A DNA stretch of 64,000 bases, from positions 15,933 to 79,932 of the forward strand of contig JAGWLZ010000017.1 in assembly GCA_028871895.1 (NCBI GenBank). Direction: 5' to 3'. This document shows, one piece after another, positions 1,182-12,812 of this stretch. Origin of the DNA: Alphaproteobacteria bacterium. Its GTDB lineage: Bacteria > Pseudomonadota > Alphaproteobacteria > Micropepsales > Micropepsaceae. The notes beneath the pieces were generated by a model. The model did no database searches. It saw only the letters and a program-made list of their open reading frames with translations, and had not been told where the DNA came from. A program made the translations under genes and the position numbers. The first letter of the stretch is position 1, and the number at the start of each line of letters is the position of its first letter.

Positions 1182-1663
1182 AGCAGCCTCAACTTGCCAA
1201 GGATGGCGCTTCGCTCGACAGGTCCGAAATAGCGCCCGTCGAAGGAGTCCGGCACGTCGGCCATCAGGAGAAACACCTCACCTCGACCAAGAGCACGACA
1301 GCCGTACCAGGCCGGAAGCGGGCGGTGGTGCGTATCGAATGCGAGGCGGATCGCAACGGCACGGTCGTCGATCAAAATGCGGTTTCCGATGCTGCAAATG
1401 CGGTCTCTCTCGAGCGCCGCGATGCGTTTGACGAGCGGTACATGCTCGGGCAGATAGCCGCGGTTCGCCGCGAGTTGGCGTGCGCTCGCAGGTGGCTCTG
1501 CCAGCACGAGTTCGCCGATGCGGAGCGGTTCGGCGGGGGACACGGCGTAAAGACCGACCGGCGCGCTCGCGGTCACATTCCAGACAAGACATGGCGATTT
1601 TGCCGCAAATATGGAGGCTATCGCCAGGCTCGTTGCGGTGAGAATCGCTCGACGTGAGGCCAT
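1169..1663 (-). CDS. traF: S26-family conjugative peptidase TraF
   Basis: WNVTASAPVGLY (Ser), PLVKRI (Lys) and SFDGRYFGP motifs. Start chosen at ATG 1663, 1 nt after the rdfS stop. Confidence 0.85.
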   Translation of the reverse strand: MASRRAILTATSLAIASIFAAKSPCLVWNVTASAPVGLYAVSPAEPLRIGELVLAEPPASARQLAANRGYLPEHVPLVKRIAALERDRICSIGNRILIDDRAVAIRLAFDTHHRPLPAWYGCRALGRGEVFLLMADVPDSFDGRYFGPVERSAILGKLRLLWRP

Positions 1664-1664
1664 G

Positions 1665-1889
1665 TCAGCGTGCCCGCGAGGCCGACCACGCATCGAGGTC
1701 GTCGATGTGATAGAAGATGTTGCGGCCATGCCGGCGGTATCTGGGGCCGGTTCCGTGCTTGCGCATCCGTCCGAGTGTGTAGGGATTGAGATGTAGGTAG
1801 TGGGCTGCCTCTTTCGTACTCAAGAAAGGACTCCCCTTCTTTGCACGCATGACCCGAAGATTTGTTTCGTCGAGATTCTTGTCGCCCAT
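1665..1889 (-). CDS. rdfS: MerR/AlpA-type HTH recombination directionality factor (excisionase)
   Basis: 74 aa; FLSTKEAAHYL...TLGRMR..GTGPRYRRHGRNIFYHIDDLDAW HTH_17-like pattern; first gene of the rdfS-traF-slt-rlxS unit. Confidence 0.78.
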   Translation of the reverse strand: MGDKNLDETNLRVMRAKKGSPFLSTKEAAHYLHLNPYTLGRMRKHGTGPRYRRHGRNIFYHIDDLDAWSASRAR

Positions 1890-1927
1890 CGCTGTGATTC
1901 ACGCCTGTCGTTCATTGCAGACCGTGA

Positions 1928-1988
1928 TTGTTAGAGGCGCAGAAACCGGCGCGGGACCGGAAGATTGCGGGCGGGCGCAATTTGCCGG
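1928..1988 (-). promoter_or_regulatory. Putative rdfS promoter with FseA-box-like inverted repeat
   Basis: Imperfect 32-bp palindrome at 1957-1988 (11/13 arm match; minus strand GGCAAA-N16-TCTTCC with inner TTGCG/CGCAA). It abuts a weak -35 (TCCCGC) 17 bp from a -10 (TAACAA, 1933-1928). Confidence 0.5.
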
Positions 1989-2006
1989 AGTGCTAATGAG
2001 CGGCAG

Positions 2007-2037
2007 CAAACCCCCGCGCCGGTGGACGACGCGGGGG
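2007..2037 (-). terminator. Intrinsic terminator after DUF736
   Basis: 8-bp GC stem CCCCCGCG/CGCGGGGG (2011-2018/2030-2037) followed by a short TTTG on the minus strand. Confidence 0.5.
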
Positions 2038-2049
2038 CACTGCGGGATA

Positions 2050-2373
2050 TCAGTCGACCGGATTCCAGATGACGGCGAAGACATCCTCGTCATCCTGACC
2101 GGCAGCTTTGCCGAGATTGGCGTAGAGCTTCTTGGGCCCGAAAGCGGGATCGCAAAGGCTCAGGCTCACATACTCCTTGCCCGAGGCTTCGCCGGTGCGG
2201 CACCAGGCCGCCCCTATTTCCGTCCCACGTGAGTACACCCGAAAGTCGGGTTGCTTGTCGCCGTTCTTTGCGGAGTTCGGCAGGATATCGATCGGCGCCT
2301 TCACCGACAACGTCTTGAGAGAACCGTGATAAGCTCCGTCCTTACCGCGCGTCACATGTCCGATGGCTGGCAT
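2050..2373 (-). CDS. DUF736 family protein (msi110-like)
   Basis: MPAIGHV...G.L.TL...DKQPDFRVYS..TEIGAAW......GKEYVSLSLCDPAFGP..LYANL...DEDVFAVIWNP. SD GGAGG precedes ATG 2373. Confidence 0.85.
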   Translation of the reverse strand: MPAIGHVTRGKDGAYHGSLKTLSVKAPIDILPNSAKNGDKQPDFRVYSRGTEIGAAWCRTGEASGKEYVSLSLCDPAFGPKKLYANLGKAAGQDDEDVFAVIWNPVD

Positions 2374-2401
2374 AGTTGCCTCCGTTTGAAGTCGCGGGAG
2401 A

Positions 2402-2627
2402 CCATTCTCCCTTGCGATGGCGTAACCGCTCATGGGCGCTCTGGATGACCGGCGAACCTGAAGGGCCGCAGCACCGCGAAGGACCGGAGCCCGCAAACTA
2501 TTTTGAGCGCAGCGCCGCGCGAGGAATGTTCGAAGCGCAGCGAAGAACAGGGGAAAATAGTTTGCGGCGACGGTTTTGCCGGCGGGCCAGCGCCCATAGG
2601 TTCCGCGCCAAAAGCAAGGGAGAATGG
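2402..2627. repeat. ~225-nt nested foldback (ssDNA promoter/ssi-like) upstream of DUF736
   Basis: Perfect 14-bp IR at 2402-2415/2614-2627, 9-bp IR at 2432-2440/2589-2597, perfect 14-bp IR at 2491-2504/2554-2567. GCGCAGC mini-hairpins in the loop. Confidence 0.7.
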
Positions 2628-3048
2628 CTCGTCCCGCAAATTCGGGAGGTGGACATGGCAGCCGTTGGACAAATGAAGCGCAACGCAGCGTAGGAGATCA
2701 ACGGAATTCTCCAACGACCATTGTAGGTGCAGACCTGCAAAGATCGACCGCCGAACAGACGCAGAATGGCGACCGGCAATTCGCGTTGAGGCGTGTTGCC
2801 GCGGACCGGAAATCTGGCCGGTCGCGCCGGACACGAAAGCTTCTGCGAAGGAATATATGTCCGTGCGAACCGTTGCGGCGCGATATTCGGACCCAGAAAG
2901 CGATACGCTCCATCTCGACCAAAGCCGCCGGTCCCCGACAACGCCACAATGCTCTGGAATCCGGCCGACCGAGCCTTCCACTGTAACCCGCGACGTTTCG
3001 GCGGGCGCGGGGTCGGCGGCTGCGATGGGGGACAATTCGGCAAGCAAG

Positions 3049-3082
3049 ACGAGGGGCGGCAGATCGACCCACCGCCCCTCGT
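3049..3082 (-). terminator. Hairpin/terminator downstream of parB-like gene
   Basis: 11-bp perfect stem ACGAGGGGCGG/CCGCCCCTCGT with a weak T-tract. Confidence 0.45.
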
Positions 3083-3104
3083 TCGCTGCACCTGCTCTGC
3101 ATCG

Positions 3105-4871
3105 CTAGGCGACTACGCGCATGTCCTCCACGCCGTTGTCGGACGCGGTCATCTCGGTTGGCGCATCATCTGCGCCTTTGAGACTACAGGTAGGTTCCGC
3201 CAAATCAGCGCCGATGCTGCGGGACGGAAACGTCATCCAGCCGGGCGTCCAATCGACCTTGGCCCGACCGTTGGCGCCCGTAAGGCAATCTTGGACGATC
3301 TGTTTCTGCGTCTTGGTTTTCTCCGCAATATTGGCGCGGGCAACGTTGTGTCCCGCCACATCGGCCAGCACGGCGTTGACGGTCGCGCGGTCGCGTATGA
3401 GGTCGAAGAATGTTTCGTCCGGCTGCCAATGTGTCCTGGCGTCCACGTTGAGGTGCGTGCCCGCGACCTCCACCGCGCCGCTGCCTGCGGCCAAGGTTTC
3501 GGCCATCCGGCAGGCGGCGATGCGCAAGACTTCCTCATTGGAAAGGGTCAGCAACCGCGCGAACACGGCAACCGCGCGGTCCTCGTTGGCTAGTGCGAAG
3601 TCGTCGTTCCGCGGCAGTTCGAGAGGTGCGTAAGCCTCGCCGCATTCCTTCTCGAATGCCACCTGCGCCGGGCTGTTCGCAATGCTCGCCCGGATAGCAT
3701 CGGTGCGGCTCGACTGGCCGTCGGCTTTGATGGACCAGTTACCCGATGCGGCAATCATGTGCGCCACCGCCAGCCGAAACGTCACGGCAGGGTCGGCAAT
3801 CAACGCCAACCGCACCGCGGCATGACGGTGCAAATCGAGATAGTTCTGCATCGCCTGCGTGATCGTGGGAAGTCCCGCCGACACGCCACTGCCGCTCAGC
3901 TTCTCCTGTTTGCGGGCCTCACGTTCCTCGGCCTTGGCGAGCTTTCTGGCTTCCTTCTGCGTCAGCCAGCCATCATGGATTTCGACATCGCCCTTGTGGG
4001 AAACGGTGATGAATACCTTGCCGCCCTTTTTCTTGGGCATCTTCACATGCTCCCATTGGGAGAAGTGCTGGCCTACCTCCATGATCTCGACAGCGATCCA
4101 TCCGGCCTTGAGAAGCGCATCCCGTTTGGCGGCAATCGCCCCGTTCTGCAAGGTCCAGAACAGGTCGGTATCCGCAAAGTAACTCTCCTTGCCGAAGAGG
4201 TCCTCCACGATCTGCCCGGTGTAGTCCTTGAGGGCAAACAGCGCCACTGTTGTCGAGATATCCTGCCCGCCGAGCAACCACTGCCTGATGTACGTGCCAC
4301 GCGGCGCGCCCTGTTGGGGATCGGCAAACAGTCGTAGCCACTTGCGCTGCTGGCTGGCCCTGGCAAGCGTCAGTTGCCGCGCGGTCTGGTCGTCGATGTC
4401 GCCTGCCGTGTAGAGTTCCCGTACCTTGGGAAGCAAGTTGCCCAGCGCCAGCCGCTGTTTCACCTGCGCCGTGGTCATGGCGAAGGTGGCGGCGATATCC
4501 TCGACCGTCTCGCCCTCCTTGATGAGGCGCACGAAGGCCAGATGCTCTGTCATCGGCTCGGCGCTACGCCGGGCAAGATTTTCGAGAAGCGAGGCCTCGA
4601 CGGCGGCGGCATCGCCGCCGTCCTCCATGACGGCACACGGCGGATCGTCCACGTCGCCCACTTCCTGTTTGAGGGTCTTGAGGGCGAAGAAGCGCCTTCT
4701 ACCCGCCACTACACCGAACTTGCCGTCCTCGGGCCGGGCAATGAGCGGCAGCAAAATGCCGAGCTTCCTGATGCTCGGCAGGATGTCGGAGACATCCGGC
4801 GGCGGCTCGCGGTGACGCATGTTGCAGGCGGAGATTTTGAGCTTACTCAAGGGGATGTGTTCAATGTTCAT
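3105..4871 (-). CDS. Long ParB/RepB/Spo0J-family protein (leading-region type)
   Basis: N-terminal ParB domain (SIRKLGILLPLIARP, VVAGRRRF, ASLLENLAR) plus HTH. ATG 4871 has SD AGGAGG. Confidence 0.85.
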   Translation of the reverse strand: MNIEHIPLSKLKISACNMRHREPPPDVSDILPSIRKLGILLPLIARPEDGKFGVVAGRRRFFALKTLKQEVGDVDDPPCAVMEDGGDAAAVEASLLENLARRSAEPMTEHLAFVRLIKEGETVEDIAATFAMTTAQVKQRLALGNLLPKVRELYTAGDIDDQTARQLTLARASQQRKWLRLFADPQQGAPRGTYIRQWLLGGQDISTTVALFALKDYTGQIVEDLFGKESYFADTDLFWTLQNGAIAAKRDALLKAGWIAVEIMEVGQHFSQWEHVKMPKKKGGKVFITVSHKGDVEIHDGWLTQKEARKLAKAEEREARKQEKLSGSGVSAGLPTITQAMQNYLDLHRHAAVRLALIADPAVTFRLAVAHMIAASGNWSIKADGQSSRTDAIRASIANSPAQVAFEKECGEAYAPLELPRNDDFALANEDRAVAVFARLLTLSNEEVLRIAACRMAETLAAGSGAVEVAGTHLNVDARTHWQPDETFFDLIRDRATVNAVLADVAGHNVARANIAEKTKTQKQIVQDCLTGANGRAKVDWTPGWMTFPSRSIGADLAEPTCSLKGADDAPTEMTASDNGVEDMRVVA

Positions 4872-4962
4872 GTCGGTCCTCCTGACCAAGGTTTGAGAGA
4901 ACCGGCCTCGTCCGTGACGTCCTTCCATGACTCTGCGGGCGAGGCCGGGCGGTGCCTCGCAC

Positions 4963-5415
4963 CTATCCGGCGCCCTCATGCGCCGGAATGACGTTGGACC
5001 AATCGGAGAGGGTATAGCGCCGTCCCTCCGCATCGATCCGGATGTTGGGATCGTTGAGGTCCGCCCCATCCGTATCGTAATCTCGGACCTCCACACGGGC
5101 ATAACCGCAATCGCTGGCGACGTTCTGGACGACACCGCCGGAGACGATTACGATCACGCGTGGGCCTTCGCCGCGCTCGGTCAAGGCCGCTGGAATCGGA
5201 AGTTGGGTAACCGCATCGCTCCACAAATCCACGTCGTCGCCCACGGCCACGGCGTCCACGAAGGTGGAGCCGCAATCGTCCAAGGACTCCCATTCACTGC
5301 TCGCGTTTGCCTGCTCGACGGCCTTCGTCAAAGCCTCGTCAAGCGTGTCCGCGTCCACGACTTCGGTATGGGCGTAGTAGGCAGCATAGCCGAGCTGGAC
5401 CGTGTAGCGGGTCAT
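4963..5415 (-). CDS. Highly acidic 150-aa hypothetical protein
   Basis: ATGA overlap with the ardC stop (5412-5415) indicates translational coupling. Protein MTRYTVQLGYAAYYAH... has no recognised family. Confidence 0.65.
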   Translation of the reverse strand: MTRYTVQLGYAAYYAHTEVVDADTLDEALTKAVEQANASSEWESLDDCGSTFVDAVAVGDDVDLWSDAVTQLPIPAALTERGEGPRVIVIVSGGVVQNVASDCGYARVEVRDYDTDGADLNDPNIRIDAEGRRYTLSDWSNVIPAHEGAG

Positions 5416-6353
5416 GACACGGCCTCCCCCTCGACGGCGGCAAGCTCGCGGAAACCGAGGATGTAATCGGCCACTTTGCTTGCTTGGCTTGCGGCATAGA
5501 AGATGGCGCGGCTGTCGGACTTGAGGATTTGAAGCCACGATCCGAGGTAAACGGCATGGCGCACTTGCGGTTCGATGCCGAACTGGGCGCATAAGAACGC
5601 GCTTGCCAATTCCGCGATCAATTCTTCGCGCCCATACGCCGTTGAGCCGAAGCGATGTTGCAGGTTGCGGTTCAATCGCGATGGGTGCGCTGTGGCGTGT
5701 GCTGCCTCGTGAAGCAGAGTGCAAAGCCGGTCGGCTTCGTTCACAAAGGCTGAGCGCGGCGGCATGCGGATGAAGTCTTCGCGCTGGTGGTAATAGGCCT
5801 CGTTGCCGCCTTCTCGGATGACAATTCCGGTCGCTGCGATCAGCGCCTCAACTTCGGGCCATGTCTCGCTCGTAGCGGCATTGGTAGACGATTGCGGCAG
5901 GGAAGCGATATGGGAAGGCAGACCTTCCGTCTGCTCCACGTTGAACACGATGAAGCGCTTGAGAAACGGCACGGCGTGCGGCTCGTCGCTCTCTTGGTAC
6001 GCCCGTTCCCGCTCCTTCTTGGGGATGAACCGGTCAGCATAAAAGATGGCGGTGCCGCGCTCGCCCTTGCGCACATGGCCGCCCAACCCTGCACATTGCC
6101 GGAAGGTGAGCCATTCCTGCGTGGCGAAGCCGCGCGCCAGCACGGCCTCCCATAAGATCAAAATGTTGATGCCGGAATACGCGCGACGTGAGGCGGCACT
6201 GCGGGGAAGTCCAAGGGCAACGCCCGAGTCTTTCCATGGCTTGACCCACGGGACGGTGCCTTGCTCAAGCTCGCAGACAATACGGTTGGTGACGTCTTCA
6301 TAGAGCGCAACACGGCTTGCGCCGGTGGCCGGTTGTTCAAGCATCTGGCGCAT
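5412..6353 (-). CDS. ardC: Antirestriction ssDNA-binding protein ArdC (DUF1738 plus zincin-like domain)
   Basis: PWVKPW, RAYSGINILILW, WLTFRQ..GG.VRKGE, FNVEQTEGL, LLHEAAHAT.H, Y..EELIAELASAFLC, H..YL.SWL..LK.D.RAIF.AAS.ASK. Confidence 0.92.
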   Translation of the reverse strand: MRQMLEQPATGASRVALYEDVTNRIVCELEQGTVPWVKPWKDSGVALGLPRSAASRRAYSGINILILWEAVLARGFATQEWLTFRQCAGLGGHVRKGERGTAIFYADRFIPKKERERAYQESDEPHAVPFLKRFIVFNVEQTEGLPSHIASLPQSSTNAATSETWPEVEALIAATGIVIREGGNEAYYHQREDFIRMPPRSAFVNEADRLCTLLHEAAHATAHPSRLNRNLQHRFGSTAYGREELIAELASAFLCAQFGIEPQVRHAVYLGSWLQILKSDSRAIFYAASQASKVADYILGFRELAAVEGEAVS

Positions 6354-6388
6354 GCGGTGCCTCCTGTTCAGGTCCCCGCCCCAGGCTT

Positions 6389-6665
6389 TTCCCCGGATGC
6401 AGGGCGGGCGGCGAGAAGCGACCGGAGAGCCCCGCTGAGGGAGGCGCGCCGCACCCCCCGGGGTCCCTGTCGCGCGCAGCGCGACGGGGTGGGGCTTAGG
6501 GCCGGAACGAAGTGGAGGACCGCGCGAAGCGCGGTTGCGGCGCGCCGCAGCGGGGCTAGAAGGGAGCGCCGCCTGCCCTGCAGAGGGGAACGGCCAAAAG
6601 AAAACTTCAGCGCGCGGCAGGTAGGCGCGTAGCGGCAGCGTGCGCGCGCGTACTGCCGCGCGCTG
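6389..6665. repeat. Nested foldback (ssDNA promoter-like) upstream of ardC
   Basis: IRs at 6389-6394/6585-6590, 6398-6413/6567-6582 (15/16), 6428-6437/6548-6557 and 6443-6453/6536-6546. Inner GNA-triloop hairpins at 6469-6485 and 6519-6535. Separate 13-bp IR at 6608-6620/6653-6665. Confidence 0.72.
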
Positions 6666-6735
6666 ACCGTACTGAGTTCGCTGAAAATGTCAGGAAGCGG
6701 TCATCGGCACAGGCGCTGTCGACGTACGCACGACG

Positions 6736-6999
6736 TTACCTGCGCCCTTTGCGTCTGCCGCCAGGGAGCGGCTTTACGGGGCTTCGCACAGCGGCCCTTT
6801 CGAAGAGTTCGGAAATCTCGACCGTCAAAGTGATCGCCAACTTCTCTAGAACGGCCACCGTGGGATTTTCGAGCTCGCGCTCGAGCCGGCTGACATAAGT
6901 CCGGTCAATTCCGGCGTCGACGGCCAACGCTTCCTGGGATAATCCGCGAGCCACGCGAAGCCGTCGGATGTTCCTTGCCACCAGAATCTGCGCCCTCAT
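6736..6999 (-). CDS. qseC: XRE/controller-protein-like HTH regulator QseC
   Basis: VARNIRRLRVARGLSQEALAVDAGIDRTYVSRLERELENPTV pattern; divergent from the qseM-like gene. Confidence 0.8.
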   Translation of the reverse strand: MRAQILVARNIRRLRVARGLSQEALAVDAGIDRTYVSRLERELENPTVAVLEKLAITLTVEISELFERAAVRSPVKPLPGGRRKGRR

Positions 7000-7092
7000 G
7001 TGGGAAGGCGAACAGGGTGCGGCTTTCTAAACCACGGACAATGGTGCTATCATTCTGGTGCTTTGGCTGGGAATGCATTGGAGTGATTCGCG
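7000..7092. promoter_or_regulatory. Overlapping divergent qseC/qseM promoters and operators
   Basis: Plus strand TTCTAA-N17-TATCAT (7025-7053) with extended TG. The same 29 bp read ATGATA-N17-TTAGAA on the minus strand. TGGTGCT direct repeat at 7042-7048 and 7056-7062. Confidence 0.45.
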
Positions 7093-7383
7093 ATGGTGCC
7101 AAGGCCGAGACCGTGCAAGGACCCTGAAATCGCCAATTCCGCGCCCGATGTGTCGTGTCTCACCGATTACGATTATAGGCTGCTCGTCACGTATCTGCGT
7201 CTGCTTGACGCGGAAAGAGAAGGCGCGGACTGGCACGAGGTTGCGCGGATTGTCCTCAAGACTGATCCCGACCGCGACTATCGACGCGCTAAACGCTGCT
7301 ACGACTCGCATCTAGCACGGGCCCATTGGATGACGGAACACGGTTACCGCCATTTGCTGCGGGAAGCAGACGACGAATGGTAG
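7093..7383 (+). CDS. qseM: Antiactivator QseM (DUF2285-type)
   Basis: LTDYDYRLLVTYLRLLDAEREGADWHEVARIVLKTDPDRDYRRAKRCYDSHLARAHWMTEHGYRHLL resembles the remembered QseM pattern (LTxYD...YMRLLDA...G.DP..EP.RA...SHL.RA.WM...GY). Convergent with fseA. Confidence 0.8.
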   Translation: MVPRPRPCKDPEIANSAPDVSCLTDYDYRLLVTYLRLLDAEREGADWHEVARIVLKTDPDRDYRRAKRCYDSHLARAHWMTEHGYRHLLREADDEW

Positions 7384-7387
7384 CGTC

Positions 7388-8173
7388 TCAGCGGAGGAAC
7401 GCCCGATATCCATGATCCATCAGGGTGCGGCCTCGCGTGATGGCGTGGCGAACCTGATCGCGCAGGTTTTCTTTGGGGTCGCGCCAGTCACGTTCGACGC
7501 GTTCGTGTCCGTAAAGCACTGTCGCAATCTCGCGCTGCGTTGCACCGCCGAGCCAGCCGTCCAGGGCTCGTAGCACAAACGTTAGGCGGGCGGCAGGCGG
7601 ATCAGGTGGGAAATATCGCTCGGGCAATCCGTGGCCGGCCCGACAGGCATGAAAACAGGCAAGCATCTGCACCTGATACACAAAGAGTGGTTCCGGCATT
7701 CCCGTATCAAATGTGAGTGTCACCGGCGCAAGCAAATTCTCTCCGCGAACGCAGAGTTGAAGGGCGCGTACGCCGTCCCGAATGAGAACATGCTGTAGCC
7801 CGTCATCGGCAAGAAGCAGCGTGGTGGGTAATTGGGTGTCCGCTAGCACAAAGGGTTGCGTCTTTGTCTGCGCCGGCAGGGCCAGAAGACGCAGCACCTT
7901 GGGGCAAGCATCGGGATCCCAAAAGACCGTCGCAGCGCCAGCGTCCTCATCGGCAGAAACGGTGAACAGGCAGGCCTCGGTCGGCATTGTCGAACGAGCA
8001 CAAACCACCTGCAGCGGACCGCCGTCTGTGCGCTTTCGCCATTTGGCCGTCTCGCACGCCTCGCGAAACGAGTCTTTGCGGCGCAAATATTCCCAGGCAA
8101 AGGCCTGTCGCGGAAAGCGAAGAAAATCGTAACCTGTGCGCCAGTCGGGCGGCACTTCCGATGCAGCTGACAT
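7388..8173 (-). CDS. fseA: Transcriptional activator FseA (DUF6499 plus DUF2285 fused in one frame)
   Basis: N-terminal DW...YD....PRQAFAWEYLRR (DUF6499). C-terminal LRALDG...GATQREIA.VLYG.ERV..DW......LRDQVR.....GR.LM..GYR.FL (DUF2285). Downstream of traI. Confidence 0.82.
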   Translation of the reverse strand: MSAASEVPPDWRTGYDFLRFPRQAFAWEYLRRKDSFREACETAKWRKRTDGGPLQVVCARSTMPTEACLFTVSADEDAGAATVFWDPDACPKVLRLLALPAQTKTQPFVLADTQLPTTLLLADDGLQHVLIRDGVRALQLCVRGENLLAPVTLTFDTGMPEPLFVYQVQMLACFHACRAGHGLPERYFPPDPPAARLTFVLRALDGWLGGATQREIATVLYGHERVERDWRDPKENLRDQVRHAITRGRTLMDHGYRAFLR

Positions 8174-8232: not shown

Positions 8233-8862
8233 TCAGGCCGCGCGCACGACGGGCGCCCAAAGCACCGGGCCGTCAAGGCCGCCGAGTTTGCGCAGGCGCT
8301 TGAGCGCGGCAACCGAGACTTCGAGATAGCCAGCGACCGCCATTGTGGTACCGATCGCCCGCGGCGGTCCGAGCCTTGCAAGCGGCCAAGCTGCACGTCG
8401 CAGGATCCGTTCCATGCGCACATCGGTCACCGTCAGGATCCTGCTCAACGATTTTGCCAGCCCGAACTCGACCATGCCGGCGAACAGCTCGTAGGTCGGG
8501 GCGGCAAGCCCGCCTCCCGCGTTGGCCGCATCGCGGTGTATGTCGAGTGCAAACCGGCTGCTCTCCCAAACATCGGCCGCCCCGGGAACCGGACCATTTG
8601 GCAGAAGCGCCGGAAATGCGTCACGCAGCATGGTAGGTCCCAATGACGGGAGCAAGCGGACGCAACCCTGAATCTGGCCGTCGAATCCCCTTAGCAGCAA
8701 GTAAGCCGGCTGCAGCGCATCGAATTCGTCGGCTTCCATGTCGCCGGCAGTCTCAACTTCCCACCCCAGGCGTTCCTTGAAGACGCGGTAGCGCAGACGG
8801 TGCATTTCGGCGAGAAGGTCAACAAACTCGCCATAACAGTTAGGTGTAATCAGTTGAATCAC
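8233..8862 (-). CDS. traI: Acyl-homoserine lactone synthase (LuxI family)
   Basis: MHRLRYRVF..RLGWEV...E.DEFD, GCVRLLP, WESSRFA and LTVTD motifs. GTG start at 8862 with SD GGAGG. Confidence 0.93.
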   Translation of the reverse strand: MIQLITPNCYGEFVDLLAEMHRLRYRVFKERLGWEVETAGDMEADEFDALQPAYLLLRGFDGQIQGCVRLLPSLGPTMLRDAFPALLPNGPVPGAADVWESSRFALDIHRDAANAGGGLAAPTYELFAGMVEFGLAKSLSRILTVTDVRMERILRRAAWPLARLGPPRAIGTTMAVAGYLEVSVAALKRLRKLGGLDGPVLWAPVVRAA

Positions 8863-8917
8863 GATCGCCTCCGTAATGGTCGGCGCGATTGAAGCGGAAT
8901 GCAGAGCGGATCGGATA

Positions 8918-8933
8918 CTGTCCAGTTGGTCAG
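8918..8933. promoter_or_regulatory. Putative tra/lux box for traI-fseA
   Basis: CTGTCCAGTTGGTCAG (6/8 pairs), centred ~63 bp upstream of the traI start. Candidate -10 TTCAAT (minus strand, 8893-8888) at class-II spacing. Confidence 0.55.
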
Positions 8934-9676
8934 GGGGGCGAGGAACCAGACCCTCGCTCGTCCGCTTGGGCCTTGGCGAGAAGGACCGCCGCCTGGCAGA
9001 TGGTGCGTACGCCCAGTTTGTGACGCACATTATCGAGATGGAACTTTACCCCGCGCGAACTCAGTCCCAGTATCGCCGCGATATCAGGCTGCGACTTACC
9101 CTGGGCTGCATGATTGAGACACTCCACCTCCCGAACGGTGAGCTTGACGTCGCCAATCTGGACACAATGAAAGAGTTTCCATCGTGCATGCGCGTGAAGC
9201 GAAATCGCCATCAGCTGTAGGACACGCCGGTTGGTCTTGATCGTGTGCTGGAACGCAACTCTGCGATCGTCACTCGCGAAGGTCACTGCGGCTACCGGTT
9301 CGTTGTCGTATTGTATTGGAACCGTGAAGCCGGAACGAATGCCAAACTGCGCGGCCTCTTCGAAAAATTTTTCCTGGGCAGTCGACATGAGCAACGTGTC
9401 GGCGCCCATTCCCCATTCAAAGGGCTCGCTCTGGCGATGAGCCAGAACGATAACTGGATCGAGTTTCTCGTAATGGGCCTTAAGATAATAATCTGTCCAT
9501 GGCAGCGGGTAGTTCGAGATGAGCTCCGGGCCGGCTTTCCTGCGGCGTGGCATCGTCAAATAGGCGAAGCACGGCAGATCGAACGCGATCGCCGTTTCTG
9601 CCATGGCTTGGTGGAAGCCTTCGCGGTCGTAGCTTTCGTTCAGGCGATCCACGAATCTTTGAAAGACGCGTTGCAT
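8930..9676 (-). CDS. traR: LuxR-family AHL-responsive regulator
   Basis: Autoinducer-binding motifs SNYP..W...Y, DPV, FEW, G...GFTVP; C-terminal LT.RE.ECL...AQGKS..DIA.ILGLS..GVKFHLDNVR.KLG HTH. Confidence 0.92.
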   Translation of the reverse strand: MQRVFQRFVDRLNESYDREGFHQAMAETAIAFDLPCFAYLTMPRRRKAGPELISNYPLPWTDYYLKAHYEKLDPVIVLAHRQSEPFEWGMGADTLLMSTAQEKFFEEAAQFGIRSGFTVPIQYDNEPVAAVTFASDDRRVAFQHTIKTNRRVLQLMAISLHAHARWKLFHCVQIGDVKLTVREVECLNHAAQGKSQPDIAAILGLSSRGVKFHLDNVRHKLGVRTICQAAVLLAKAQADERGSGSSPP

Positions 9677-11552: not shown

Positions 11553-12812
11553 TCATGGGAACAATCCACGAAGTTTCTTACCGGCAGCGACGCGCTCCAC
11601 GCCAATGGCATGTGCCGCCAAGCGGTTGGAGATGCGTTCGGCATTGACCCGACGGATGACGATCTCAAAGGCCCGCTCCAGAAGCTGTGCAAGCTGGTTT
11701 CTCACTTGGTCTTCGGACCACATCAAACGCTGCAGGCCCTGCACCCATTCGAAATAGGAAACGATCACCCCTCCGGAATTGCAGAGGATATCCGGGATCA
11801 GGAATATATCTCCGCGATCTTCGATGACCTGATCGGCCTCCGGTGTGGTCGGCCCGTTCGCGCCCTCTGCCAGGATTCTGCAGTTCAACGCCCCGGCAAG
11901 ATCAACATCGATGGCCCTTTCGGTTGCCGCGGGAATGAGAATGTCGCAGCGCCTCCGGAGCAAGTCGGAGGGATCGCTGATCAGTTCGCGCGACCAGCCT
12001 TTTAGCGAACCGTTTCGCGCGGCATAAGCGACAAGGTCCCGCACAGGCAAGCCTTTCGCGCAATAGTATGCCGCGGAATGATCGCTCACGCCGATGACCC
12101 TGATCCCCATCTCTTCGTGCAATATGGATGCGACGACCGAGCCAACATTGCCGAAGCCTTGGACAATTGCCGTCTGACCCGCATGATCGTGACCGATGTA
12201 CTTCATAGTTAGGCCGATCAGATGGCACGCGCCCCTGCCCGTCGCTTCCTGTCGGCCGATACAGCCGCCGAGGCTTACGGGCTTGCCTGTCACGATTTCC
12301 GAAGTGGCATGTCCGCTGTACATGGAATAGGTGTCCATGAACCATGCCATCACCTGTTCGTTGGTGCCGACATCTGGTGCCATGACATCGGTATGGGGCC
12401 CGACGAATGGTATCAATTCCTGCATGTATCGACGCGATAAAACTTCGCGCTCTCTCGGCGACAGCGCGTAGGGGTCGCAGGCAACGCCGCCTTTTGCGCC
12501 GCCATAAGGCAGCCCCGCGAGCGCGCATTTCCAGCTCATCCAAATGGCCAGTGCTGCGACCTCGCCGATCTCGAGTTCCGGCGCGAATCGCGTCCCACCT
12601 TTGGTGGGGCCTAGCGTGAGATGGTGCTGAACGCGATAACCTTGGAACACCTCCGTTCGGCCGTCGTCCCTGTGAATGGGCACCGATACGGTGATGGCGC
12701 GCTTGGGGTACAACAGGCGCGCTCGATCGTCCGCCGGGATATCGAGGTGGTTTGCGACCAACTCGAACTGATCGCGTGCCATGTTGAATACAGGACCGTC
12801 ATAAATCGACAT
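11553..12812 (-). CDS. gdhA: Glu/Leu/Phe/Val-family dehydrogenase (glutamate dehydrogenase)
   Basis: GYRVQH...GPTKGG.RF, MSWKCAL..LPYGGAKGG, DVMAPDVGT, TGKP, QGFGNVG, EGANGPTT, GGVIVSYFEWVQ. Confidence 0.92.
   Translation of the reverse strand: MSIYDGPVFNMARDQFELVANHLDIPADDRARLLYPKRAITVSVPIHRDDGRTEVFQGYRVQHHLTLGPTKGGTRFAPELEIGEVAALAIWMSWKCALAGLPYGGAKGGVACDPYALSPREREVLSRRYMQELIPFVGPHTDVMAPDVGTNEQVMAWFMDTYSMYSGHATSEIVTGKPVSLGGCIGRQEATGRGACHLIGLTMKYIGHDHAGQTAIVQGFGNVGSVVASILHEEMGIRVIGVSDHSAAYYCAKGLPVRDLVAYAARNGSLKGWSRELISDPSDLLRRRCDILIPAATERAIDVDLAGALNCRILAEGANGPTTPEADQVIEDRGDIFLIPDILCNSGGVIVSYFEWVQGLQRLMWSEDQVRNQLAQLLERAFEIVIRRVNAERISNRLAAHAIGVERVAAGKKLRGLFP

Follow-up and report, generated by a model that had tools for sequence, protein, structure and literature searches.

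How could a gene on an incoming conjugative element be expressed before the strand that carries it has been copied? Single-stranded DNA (ssDNA) promoters explain such expression for plasmid anti-defence genes, and they have been shown only in enterobacterial IncF and IncI plasmids. The same question is raised by a locus in the alphaproteobacterial assembly GCA_028871895.1 (Micropepsaceae), where a branched foldback, here called element 1 (positions 6385-6593, + strand), lies upstream of the gene ardC in a stretch of 64,000 nucleotides (nt) of contig JAGWLZ010000017.1 that is referred to below as the window. A sequence-only reading of the window had proposed that this structure works in the transferred + strand as a promoter or priming signal. 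The computational analysis presented here finds a selected structure that is polarised to the + strand, on what we infer to be the transferred strand, with promoter-like boxes in the appropriate arm and orientation, and from these sequence features a promoter or priming activity is suggested. Element 1 quite probably folds and acts as ssDNA in the + strand, and we put the probability that it is an ssDNA promoter, possibly also a primer site, for ardC, the orphan gene that follows and parB at roughly 0.52. Taken by itself, the claim that RNA polymerase would use element 1 as a promoter for ardC is close to an even call.

A conserved branched foldback upstream of ardC

The ardC start codon (6353) follows 31 nt downstream of element 1. 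The covariance model R1, which is built from ardC-upstream elements only, matches the element in full and scores 121.3 bits on the + strand versus 12.8 bits on the minus strand. When the region 6380-6680 is folded as ssDNA, the + strand reaches -114.1 kcal/mol, compared with a mean of -84.9 for shuffled sequences (z -6.96; 0 of 100 shuffles as good), and the minus strand reaches -103.5 kcal/mol (z -5.95). The long, stable stem-loop that characterizes ssDNA promoters is present on the + strand, the putative transferred strand. An outer stem (6389-6394 with 6585-6590) encloses a second stem of 16 base pairs (bp) that is 94% complementary (6398-6413 with 6567-6582), a third (6428-6437 with 6548-6557) and a fourth (6443-6453 with 6536-6546). 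The second and third stems are separated on the + strand by an internal loop with a 5' side of 14 nt (AGAAGCGACCGGAG, 6414-6427; probability of being unpaired 0.62), in which CGACCG is conserved in alignment columns 35-48 and which would be the unpaired template segment of a single-strand promoter, and a 3' side of 9 nt (6558-6566).

The four nested stems and two 7-bp hairpins described in the sequence-only reading are all present at the positions it gave. The hairpin GTCGCGC-GCA-GCGCGAC (6468-6484), one of the two it had listed, belongs to an optional + strand module at the junction (6454-6497) that is absent from most close homologues, where a bare CCC-GAA-GGG stands in its place, and in many others the loop is not of the GNA type. 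Plasmid copies from Rhizobium, Bosea, Bradyrhizobium, Xanthobacter and Ancylobacter carry a related GGGGTCCC...GGGGTGG module whose loops vary. The second hairpin, ACCGCGC-GAA-GCGCGGT (6519-6535, + strand), lies directly 5' of a -35-like hexamer and is variable: its stem covaries strongly, with double changes in three of four modelled pairs, and no more than about half of the homologues have GNA in its loop; in several homologues an embedded GC-GNA-GC is found instead. Two of the three GNA features that had been cited are incidental, and the conserved one had gone unlisted. It is the apical mini-hairpin ACGAAGT (6507-6513, + strand), GCGAAGC in most homologues, inside GGGCCGGAACGAAGTGGAGGAC, the most conserved block of the family. 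Its closing pair covaries (G-C to A-T in seven sequences, C-G to T-A in two), the loop is always G/A-N-A, and the apical block is retained in copies from Rhizobium, Bosea, Bradyrhizobium, Roseibium, Xanthobacter and Sphingobium.

Loci collected on the basis of ArdC from the genomes of 185,579 species yielded 34 relatives, among them records labelled Rhizomicrobium, and 22 of these align with the window over 170-210 nt upstream of ardC. In the 22-sequence alignment 98% of cells form standard pairs, and compensatory double changes are seen in 18 of 48 pairs. This level of covariation was reached by 0 of 500 shuffles, and sliding the partners by 1-3 columns lowered pairing to 40-47%. Distant plasmid copies aligned with the model show compensatory change in 44 of 50 pairs, a figure that leans towards the structure because that alignment was fitted to the model. 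Both the structure and the conservation of element 1 are established by these comparisons.

A distant BLAST search found the core in 58 plasmid records, including Mesorhizobium, Sphingobium, Rhizobium, Roseibium, Bradyrhizobium, Agrobacterium and Xanthobacter. In all nine clear plasmid cases, which span MOBP and MOBQ systems, the element has the orientation of the query and precedes, by 50-90 nt, an ardC or DUF736 gene carried on the other strand. In leading regions of plasmids and of integrative and conjugative elements (ICEs), the covariance model finds several copies per region, all on one strand. The MOBQ Ti-type plasmid p42a of Rhizobium etli carries three or more on one strand, before ardC, DUF736 and a small open reading frame (ORF), downstream of traG. 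Across the family, distant copies included, the constants are GTTGC, the apical GGGCCG.AACGAAGTGGAGGAC block and the GNA loops. R1 matches were found in 3 of 150 other genomes in a sample of the class with one genome per family, as expected for a mobile element, and none was found in 16 kb on the relaxase and type IV secretion system (T4SS) side of the ICE in the window.

In a tenth plasmid case, Tardibacter plasmid pHSL1 (locus L058, 2497-2643), the foldback is found inside an annotated ORF, a 'zincin-like metallopeptidase', beside a second ArdC-like ORF; the annotation probably runs through a non-coding element after a duplication. Locus L034 contains a second near-complete ardC-type foldback (12344-12511; 137 bits) 6.4 kb downstream of ardC, and since it is followed by a 63-amino-acid C-terminal fragment of ArdC, it can be read as a duplicated element with a truncated gene.

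The window itself contains a distant paralogue, element 2 (2402-2626, + strand), 28 nt upstream of a DUF736 gene (2050-2373, minus strand). The sequence-only reading had credited the two elements with a common architecture and little common sequence. The likeness is real and was understated, as R1 finds element 2 over its full length on the + strand with 29.5 bits (E 1e-4 in 12 kb). In the R1 alignment ACCTGAAGGGCCGCAGCACCGCGAAGGACC of element 2 corresponds to the apical block, and GGTTTTGCC...CATAGGTT corresponds to the -35/-10-like region. Eleven loci carry a homologue of element 2 before DUF736, with GGTTTC-N17-TAGGT(T/C) conserved. Within this sub-family CAT is paired with ATG, the A at -11 has no partner, GGT(C/T) covaries with (G/A)ACC, the + strand is the more stable in 12 of 12 sequences, and 14 G·T appositions are counted versus five C·A.

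Strand polarity and a candidate origin of transfer

Which of the two strands folds? Because standard pairs are identical on both strands, it is the non-Watson-Crick cells that decide. Across the 22 homologues, 45 cells at 11 pairs are G·T wobbles on the + strand, and hence C·A on the minus strand, and the reverse case accounts for two cells. Under DNA folding parameters all 22 homologues have a + strand that is more stable than its complement, the mean difference being 9.5 kcal/mol, and R1 scores 119-172 bits on the + equivalent strand versus 17-46 bits on the other. The seven-base GNA mini-hairpin motifs, whose strand polarity had been pointed out from the window, agree: the two elements of the window together have seven on the + strand and one on the minus strand, and the 22 homologous elements have 72 and 11, so that the polarity is not random among homologues, whereas the whole 64-kb window shows no strand bias (239 versus 231). 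GC-GNA-GC triloop hairpins, studied by Hirao and colleagues, have an exceptional and DNA-specific stability. These counts establish the strand bias of element 1, as the comparison of loci does its position and orientation.

A second question is which strand is transferred. The origin of transfer (oriT) of ICEMlSym(R7A) has been placed between msi107 (slt) and rlxS (PMC11963761). In nine loci with both genes, the slt-rlxS spacer contains GATGTGCAGAC, an inverted repeat and TTT(A/C)TCTTGCC, all on the + equivalent strand. In the window the oriT-associated motif GATGTGCAGAC is located at 424-434 and a candidate nic region, TTTCTCTTGCC (TTTATCTTGCC in relatives), at 465-475, both on the + strand and conserved together. 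The MOBP nick consensus is YATCCTG|Y, from which TATCTTG|CC differs by one base, and by analogy the nick may fall between G473 and C474. Given a repeat on the side of the relaxase gene, nicking would affect the + strand, which would then exit 5' to 3' in the direction of slt, DUF736, parB and ardC. The nic-like motif (conserved as TCTCTTG|CC), taken with the rule that the relaxase gene enters last, points to the + strand as the transferred strand; if so, all genes from slt through ardC would be templated by it, and rlxS would be the last to enter. The loci keep the order ardC...slt-rlxS on one strand, and element 1 occupies the position of a leading-region element, upstream of genes that would be templated by the transferred strand.

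Promoter-like signals and competing explanations

In the close family the 3' arm of the foldback conserves GTTGCGGC-N-CCTAGAAGGGAGCGCCGCC, which reads TTGCGG, a 16-nt spacer and TAGAAG. The -35-like TTGCGG (6535-6540, + strand; probability of being unpaired 0.14) has T6535 paired with A6519, so closing the variable hairpin, and TGCGG in stem 4, at the multi-branch junction. GTTGCGG is found in 19 of the 22 homologues, the remaining three having TTGCGC or TTGTGG, and GTTGC is retained in the distant plasmid copies. The -10-like TAGAAG (6557-6562, + strand) is followed by GGAG, which extends to 6566; T6557 pairs with A6428, and A6558-G6566 make up the 3' side of the internal loop. Among the 22 sequences the T, the A and the final G of this box are invariant (variants TACAAG, TAAAAG, TATGAG, TAAACG and TAGCAG). 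The T at -12 is paired (probability of being unpaired 0.04), as is stem 2 (0.02), and from the A at -11 onward the arms part (0.57 on the 3' side, 0.62 on the 5' side), such that in the predicted fold this duplex-to-loop boundary resembles an already opened promoter. The orientation of the boxes suits a single-strand promoter, in which the 3' arm is the non-template strand and reading of the 5' arm in the 3' to 5' direction leads from the hairpin into ardC; in duplex DNA the boxes face away from ardC. A sigma-54-like arrangement in the Rhizobium etli copy (GGC-N9-TTGCA) was considered and rejected, its spacing varying with a hairpin of variable length.

The stem next to element 1, which the sequence-only reading had counted as 13 bp with GC-GTA-GC in its loop, is present as a perfect 14-bp stem (6607-6620 with 6653-6666; 100% complementary) with a 32-nt loop, and it does not belong to the device. 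Lying outside the foldback, it has the features of an intrinsic terminator for qseC, the minus-strand gene upstream: the stem is rich in G+C, the minus strand continues into a T-run (AGTTTTCTTTTGG, the reverse complement of 6594-6606), and homologues have in the same place a shorter covarying hairpin with a T-rich minus-strand tail. An automatic terminator scan of 6300-7100 missed this hairpin because its loop exceeds the 8-nt limit of the scan, and the terminator was read by eye. No role is evident for the GCGTAGC motif in its loop (6627-6633). Such a terminator, 13 nt from the foldback, would shield ardC from transcription arriving from upstream, in agreement with an ardC whose expression relies on the foldback.

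How would such an element work? RlxS would nick oriT at about 473/474, and the + strand would enter the recipient 5' end first, bringing in slt, traF, rdfS, DUF736, parB and ardC in that order and rlxS last. Before its complement is synthesized the + strand would fold, with the 3' arm as the non-template strand carrying TTGCGG, the 16-nt spacer and TAGAAG, in a duplex that would hold up to T(-12) and give way from A(-11) to the internal loop of 9 x 14 nt, like a pre-opened promoter. The host RNA polymerase could start there, use the 5' arm as template and continue into ardC, the orphan gene and parB, and the resulting RNA might also prime synthesis of the complementary strand. Expression would be early and transient because the boxes face away in duplex DNA, the minus strand lacks any promoter-like site and read-through would be blocked by the terminator just upstream.

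Several observations weigh against a promoter of this kind. A strict sigma-70 scan of 6300-7100 on both strands found no promoter, and the promoter reading therefore depends on relaxed boxes of an alphaproteobacterial type; the hexamers are non-canonical, the -10-like one ending in G where the canonical box ends in T. In about half of the close family CTTC of the 5' loop can pair with GAAG, which leaves the loop partly open (probability of being unpaired 0.57). Distant copies, such as those of Rhizobium, Bosea and Bradyrhizobium, retain neither the -10-like box nor the T:A pair at -12, and what the family does keep, namely GTTGC, the apical block and the GNA loops, is explained by no promoter model. 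For this reason the factor that reads the element may recognize the junction rather than classical boxes. The strand argument carries qualifications of its own: the + strand is G-rich (1662 G versus 1248 C), which contributes to its greater stability, the 22 homologues are related by descent, so that the counts are of non-independent events, and the assignment of the transferred strand is an inference from a motif and the relaxase-last rule.

An alternative that shares all of the structural + strand evidence is that element 1 is a priming signal only, an ssi or single-strand origin at which the folded + strand recruits primase, a primosome or RNA polymerase without making an mRNA, ardC being expressed later from the duplex. 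The best-kept part of the family is the apical junction with its GNA mini-hairpins rather than the -10-like box, as would suit a recognition hairpin for a priming protein, and Frpo was originally defined as a promoter of primer RNA. However, one priming site would suffice, and yet the element is present in several copies, each immediately before a gene for which the same strand is the template, and with a terminator upstream and no visible duplex promoter ardC would be left without any other evident promoter. We regard priming alone as unlikely. A structured antisense or small RNA made from the + strand and regulating ardC or the upstream gene would account for the covariation and the G·T (in RNA, G·U) bias as well as DNA does. 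It is nevertheless improbable: an Rfam scan of 1500-8000 with E up to 1 gave no relevant family match, the region to the left is ardC coding sequence with no + promoter, the window has no + terminator after the foldback, the stability of GC-GNA-GC triloops is specific to DNA, and the partner gene varies (ardC, DUF736, hypothetical genes) as the element stays constant.

The same wobbles bear on the possibility that the minus strand is what folds, as a structured 5' leader of the ardC mRNA acting as an attenuator, stabilizer or riboregulator. The foldback is directly upstream of the ardC ribosome-binding site, and the minus strand does fold well (z -5.95), but on that strand 45 conserved-pair cells would be C·A mismatches versus two wobbles, the fold is the less stable one in 22 of 22 homologues, the model score is about 100 bits lower, and the 13 nt between terminator and foldback leave no room for an upstream promoter; we consider such a leader quite improbable. 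The least probable of these explanations, and a very remote one, is a feature of duplex DNA, such as a palindrome array bound by a protein, a cruciform or a selfish repeat of the miniature inverted-repeat transposable element (MITE) or repetitive extragenic palindrome (REP) kind. The many inverted repeats and the regulators encoded nearby (qseC, qseM, fseA) speak for it, yet duplex sites yield neither compensatory changes across distances of 150 nt nor an asymmetry of G·T over C·A, and the orientation of the element to the downstream gene is fixed. A dispersed MITE or REP repeat was rejected on the grounds that BLAST gives a single match in the 3.9-Mb genome and R1 finds just two copies, both confined to the leading region.

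Relation to known systems and genomic setting

In plasmid F (Frpo) and in ColIb-P9 (ssi1-3), the transferred strand forms 300-nt foldbacks, now counted as class 1 ssDNA promoters, that rebuild -35 and -10 boxes and give early, transient expression of leading genes (PMC9849209, PMC7690428, PMC11541004), and a 2025 study distinguished ssDNA promoter classes 1-3 in pESBL and F, mapped their start sites and observed weak induction in Sinorhizobium (PMC12672017). The alphaproteobacterial elements, like Frpo1, Frpo2 and the ssi1-3 of ColIb-P9 and pESBL, are non-coding foldbacks of 200-300 nt in leading regions, set before early genes (anti-restriction, ParB-like) that are templated by the transferred strand. 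Several related copies share one strand of a leading region, a stem bears -35/-10-like boxes, and the design predicts silence once the DNA is double-stranded. Judged by sequence, the family appears to match ssDNA promoters in every respect that could be computed: place, strand, fold, multiple copies and genes served. The transferred strand of F Frpo2 has a comparable fold z-score of -5.2, size and z-score being the only yardsticks taken from it. Unlike Frpo and ssi, which form a single long hairpin, the alphaproteobacterial element is about 75% G+C with a branched junction, has conserved apical GNA mini-hairpins and has non-canonical boxes that are lost across the wider family; its hosts are Alphaproteobacteria, on ICEs and MOBP and MOBQ plasmids, and it is known here from sequence alone.

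Common descent with F Frpo was considered and rejected. When the two elements of the window were compared by BLAST with 15.5 kb of the leading region of F (NC_002483), the matches were of 10-26 nt and at chance level, all with E above 0.03; an R1 scan of the F leading region gave no match at Frpo2 or Frpo1; and a 14-mer shared with both Frpo copies, GAAGCGCGGTT(T)GCG, is at chance level (E 1.9). The transferred strand of both F Frpo copies carries GAAGCGCGGTTTGCG (locus L050, 6289-6302 and 11678-11691, minus strand), which resembles GCGAAGCGCGGTTGCGG of the window (6523-6540), again at chance level with E 1.9.

Other folded nucleic acids offer partial parallels. The ssoA-type origins of rolling-circle plasmids and the sso of ICEBs1 are strand-specific folded ssDNA with partly paired -35 and -10 boxes, at which RNA polymerase makes a primer in one orientation; unlike element 1 they serve replication and are not placed before a gene, and no relation is evident, although no search was aimed at their conserved RSB and CS-6 motifs. 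The d(GCGAAGC) mini-hairpins, a structural motif rather than a functional family, have their counterpart in the GC-GAA-GC and covarying AC-GAA-GT, AT-GAA-AT and GC-GCA-GC apices on the + strand only, where such a hairpin could be a nucleation point, a site that excludes single-strand binding protein or a protein recognition site. Element 1 resembles 6S RNA and other open-promoter mimics in having a central loop between duplex arms, with -12 paired and -11 onward unpaired. Unlike 6S, an RNA that sequesters RNA polymerase, element 1 would be DNA and productive, and the Rfam scan gave no 6S match.

Our literature search returned no paper describing such elements in Alphaproteobacteria, such promoters having been described only in IncF and IncI plasmids. 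Tentatively, and as a possibility that we still rate as unlikely, the family might constitute a fourth, alphaproteobacterial class of ssDNA promoter with a design of its own, switching on anti-defence genes and priming the second strand on ICEs, Ti-type plasmids and rhizobial plasmids. It would be built around a three-way junction, with the GNA mini-hairpins and the invariant GGGCCG.AACGAAGTGGAGGAC-hairpin-GTTGC block as a recognition module beside a pre-opened bubble at -11. RNA polymerase or its sigma factor might read this module, or a protein encoded by the element or transferred with it, such as ArdC or a ParB-like protein. If element 1 is indeed an ssDNA promoter, the principle would extend to alphaproteobacterial ICEs, rhizobial symbiosis elements, and Ti-type and catabolic plasmids; the family would offer a marker for leading regions and anti-defence genes in Alphaproteobacteria and a concrete sequence to test, and its conserved GNA mini-hairpins would offer a rare instance of natural selection acting on a DNA-specific hairpin motif.

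The left 9.7 kb of the window is the transfer and regulation end of an ICE of the ICEMlSym type in this 3.9-Mb alphaproteobacterial genome, and the T4SS genes and traG are farther left along the contig. The minus strand encodes rlxS, a MobA/VirD2-like protein with DUF3363 (its gene ending at 287), slt (537-1181), traF (1169-1729), rdfS (1665-1889), the DUF736 gene, orf134 (2698-3102), parB (3105-5135; Pfam ParB_N, 1.5e-7), the acidic orphan (4963-5415) and ardC (5412-6353; Pfam ArdcN, 7e-38, and MPTase-PolyVal, 3e-47). The last of these is the first gene downstream of element 1, and the orphan and then parB come after it on the same strand. Beyond the terminator are a qseC-like helix-turn-helix gene (6736-6999, minus strand), qseM (7093-7383, + strand), and fseA (7388-8173), traI (8233-9030) and traR (8930-9676), all three on the minus strand.

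Further small structures accompany the elements. In loci L016-L038, about 60-200 nt 3' of the foldback in the transferred-strand orientation (for example L017:5600-5760, minus strand of that locus), another conserved structured block, TTGCGTCAGGGATCGAAGCCCGAAGGGCCGAGACCGC...GCGGGCTCGGTTCACGAGAGCCCGGCCGCGC...GCGCGGGGCG, has its own GCCC-GAA-GGGC hairpin and lies beyond the terminator in most homologous loci; the window is without the TTGCGTCAGGGATCGAAGCCCGAAGGGCCGAGACCGC...GCGCGGGGCG block, and qseC occupies that place. In plasmids of Rhizobium, Bosea, Roseibium, Xanthobacter, Bradyrhizobium and Ancylobacter (L051, L059-L063), the interval that separates the foldback from the ribosome-binding site holds a small conserved hairpin, GGCCGCGCCCATCGCGGCC, at 10-20 nt from the ardC or DUF736 start. 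This hairpin is absent from the family of the window and could be a hairpin at the 5' end of the mRNA or part of the device. Just past the DUF736 stop codon, at 2007-2042, a G+C-rich hairpin (CCCCCGCGCC...GGCGCGGGGG) with the minus-strand tail TTTGCTGCC is likely a terminator that separates DUF736 from the rdfS promoter region.

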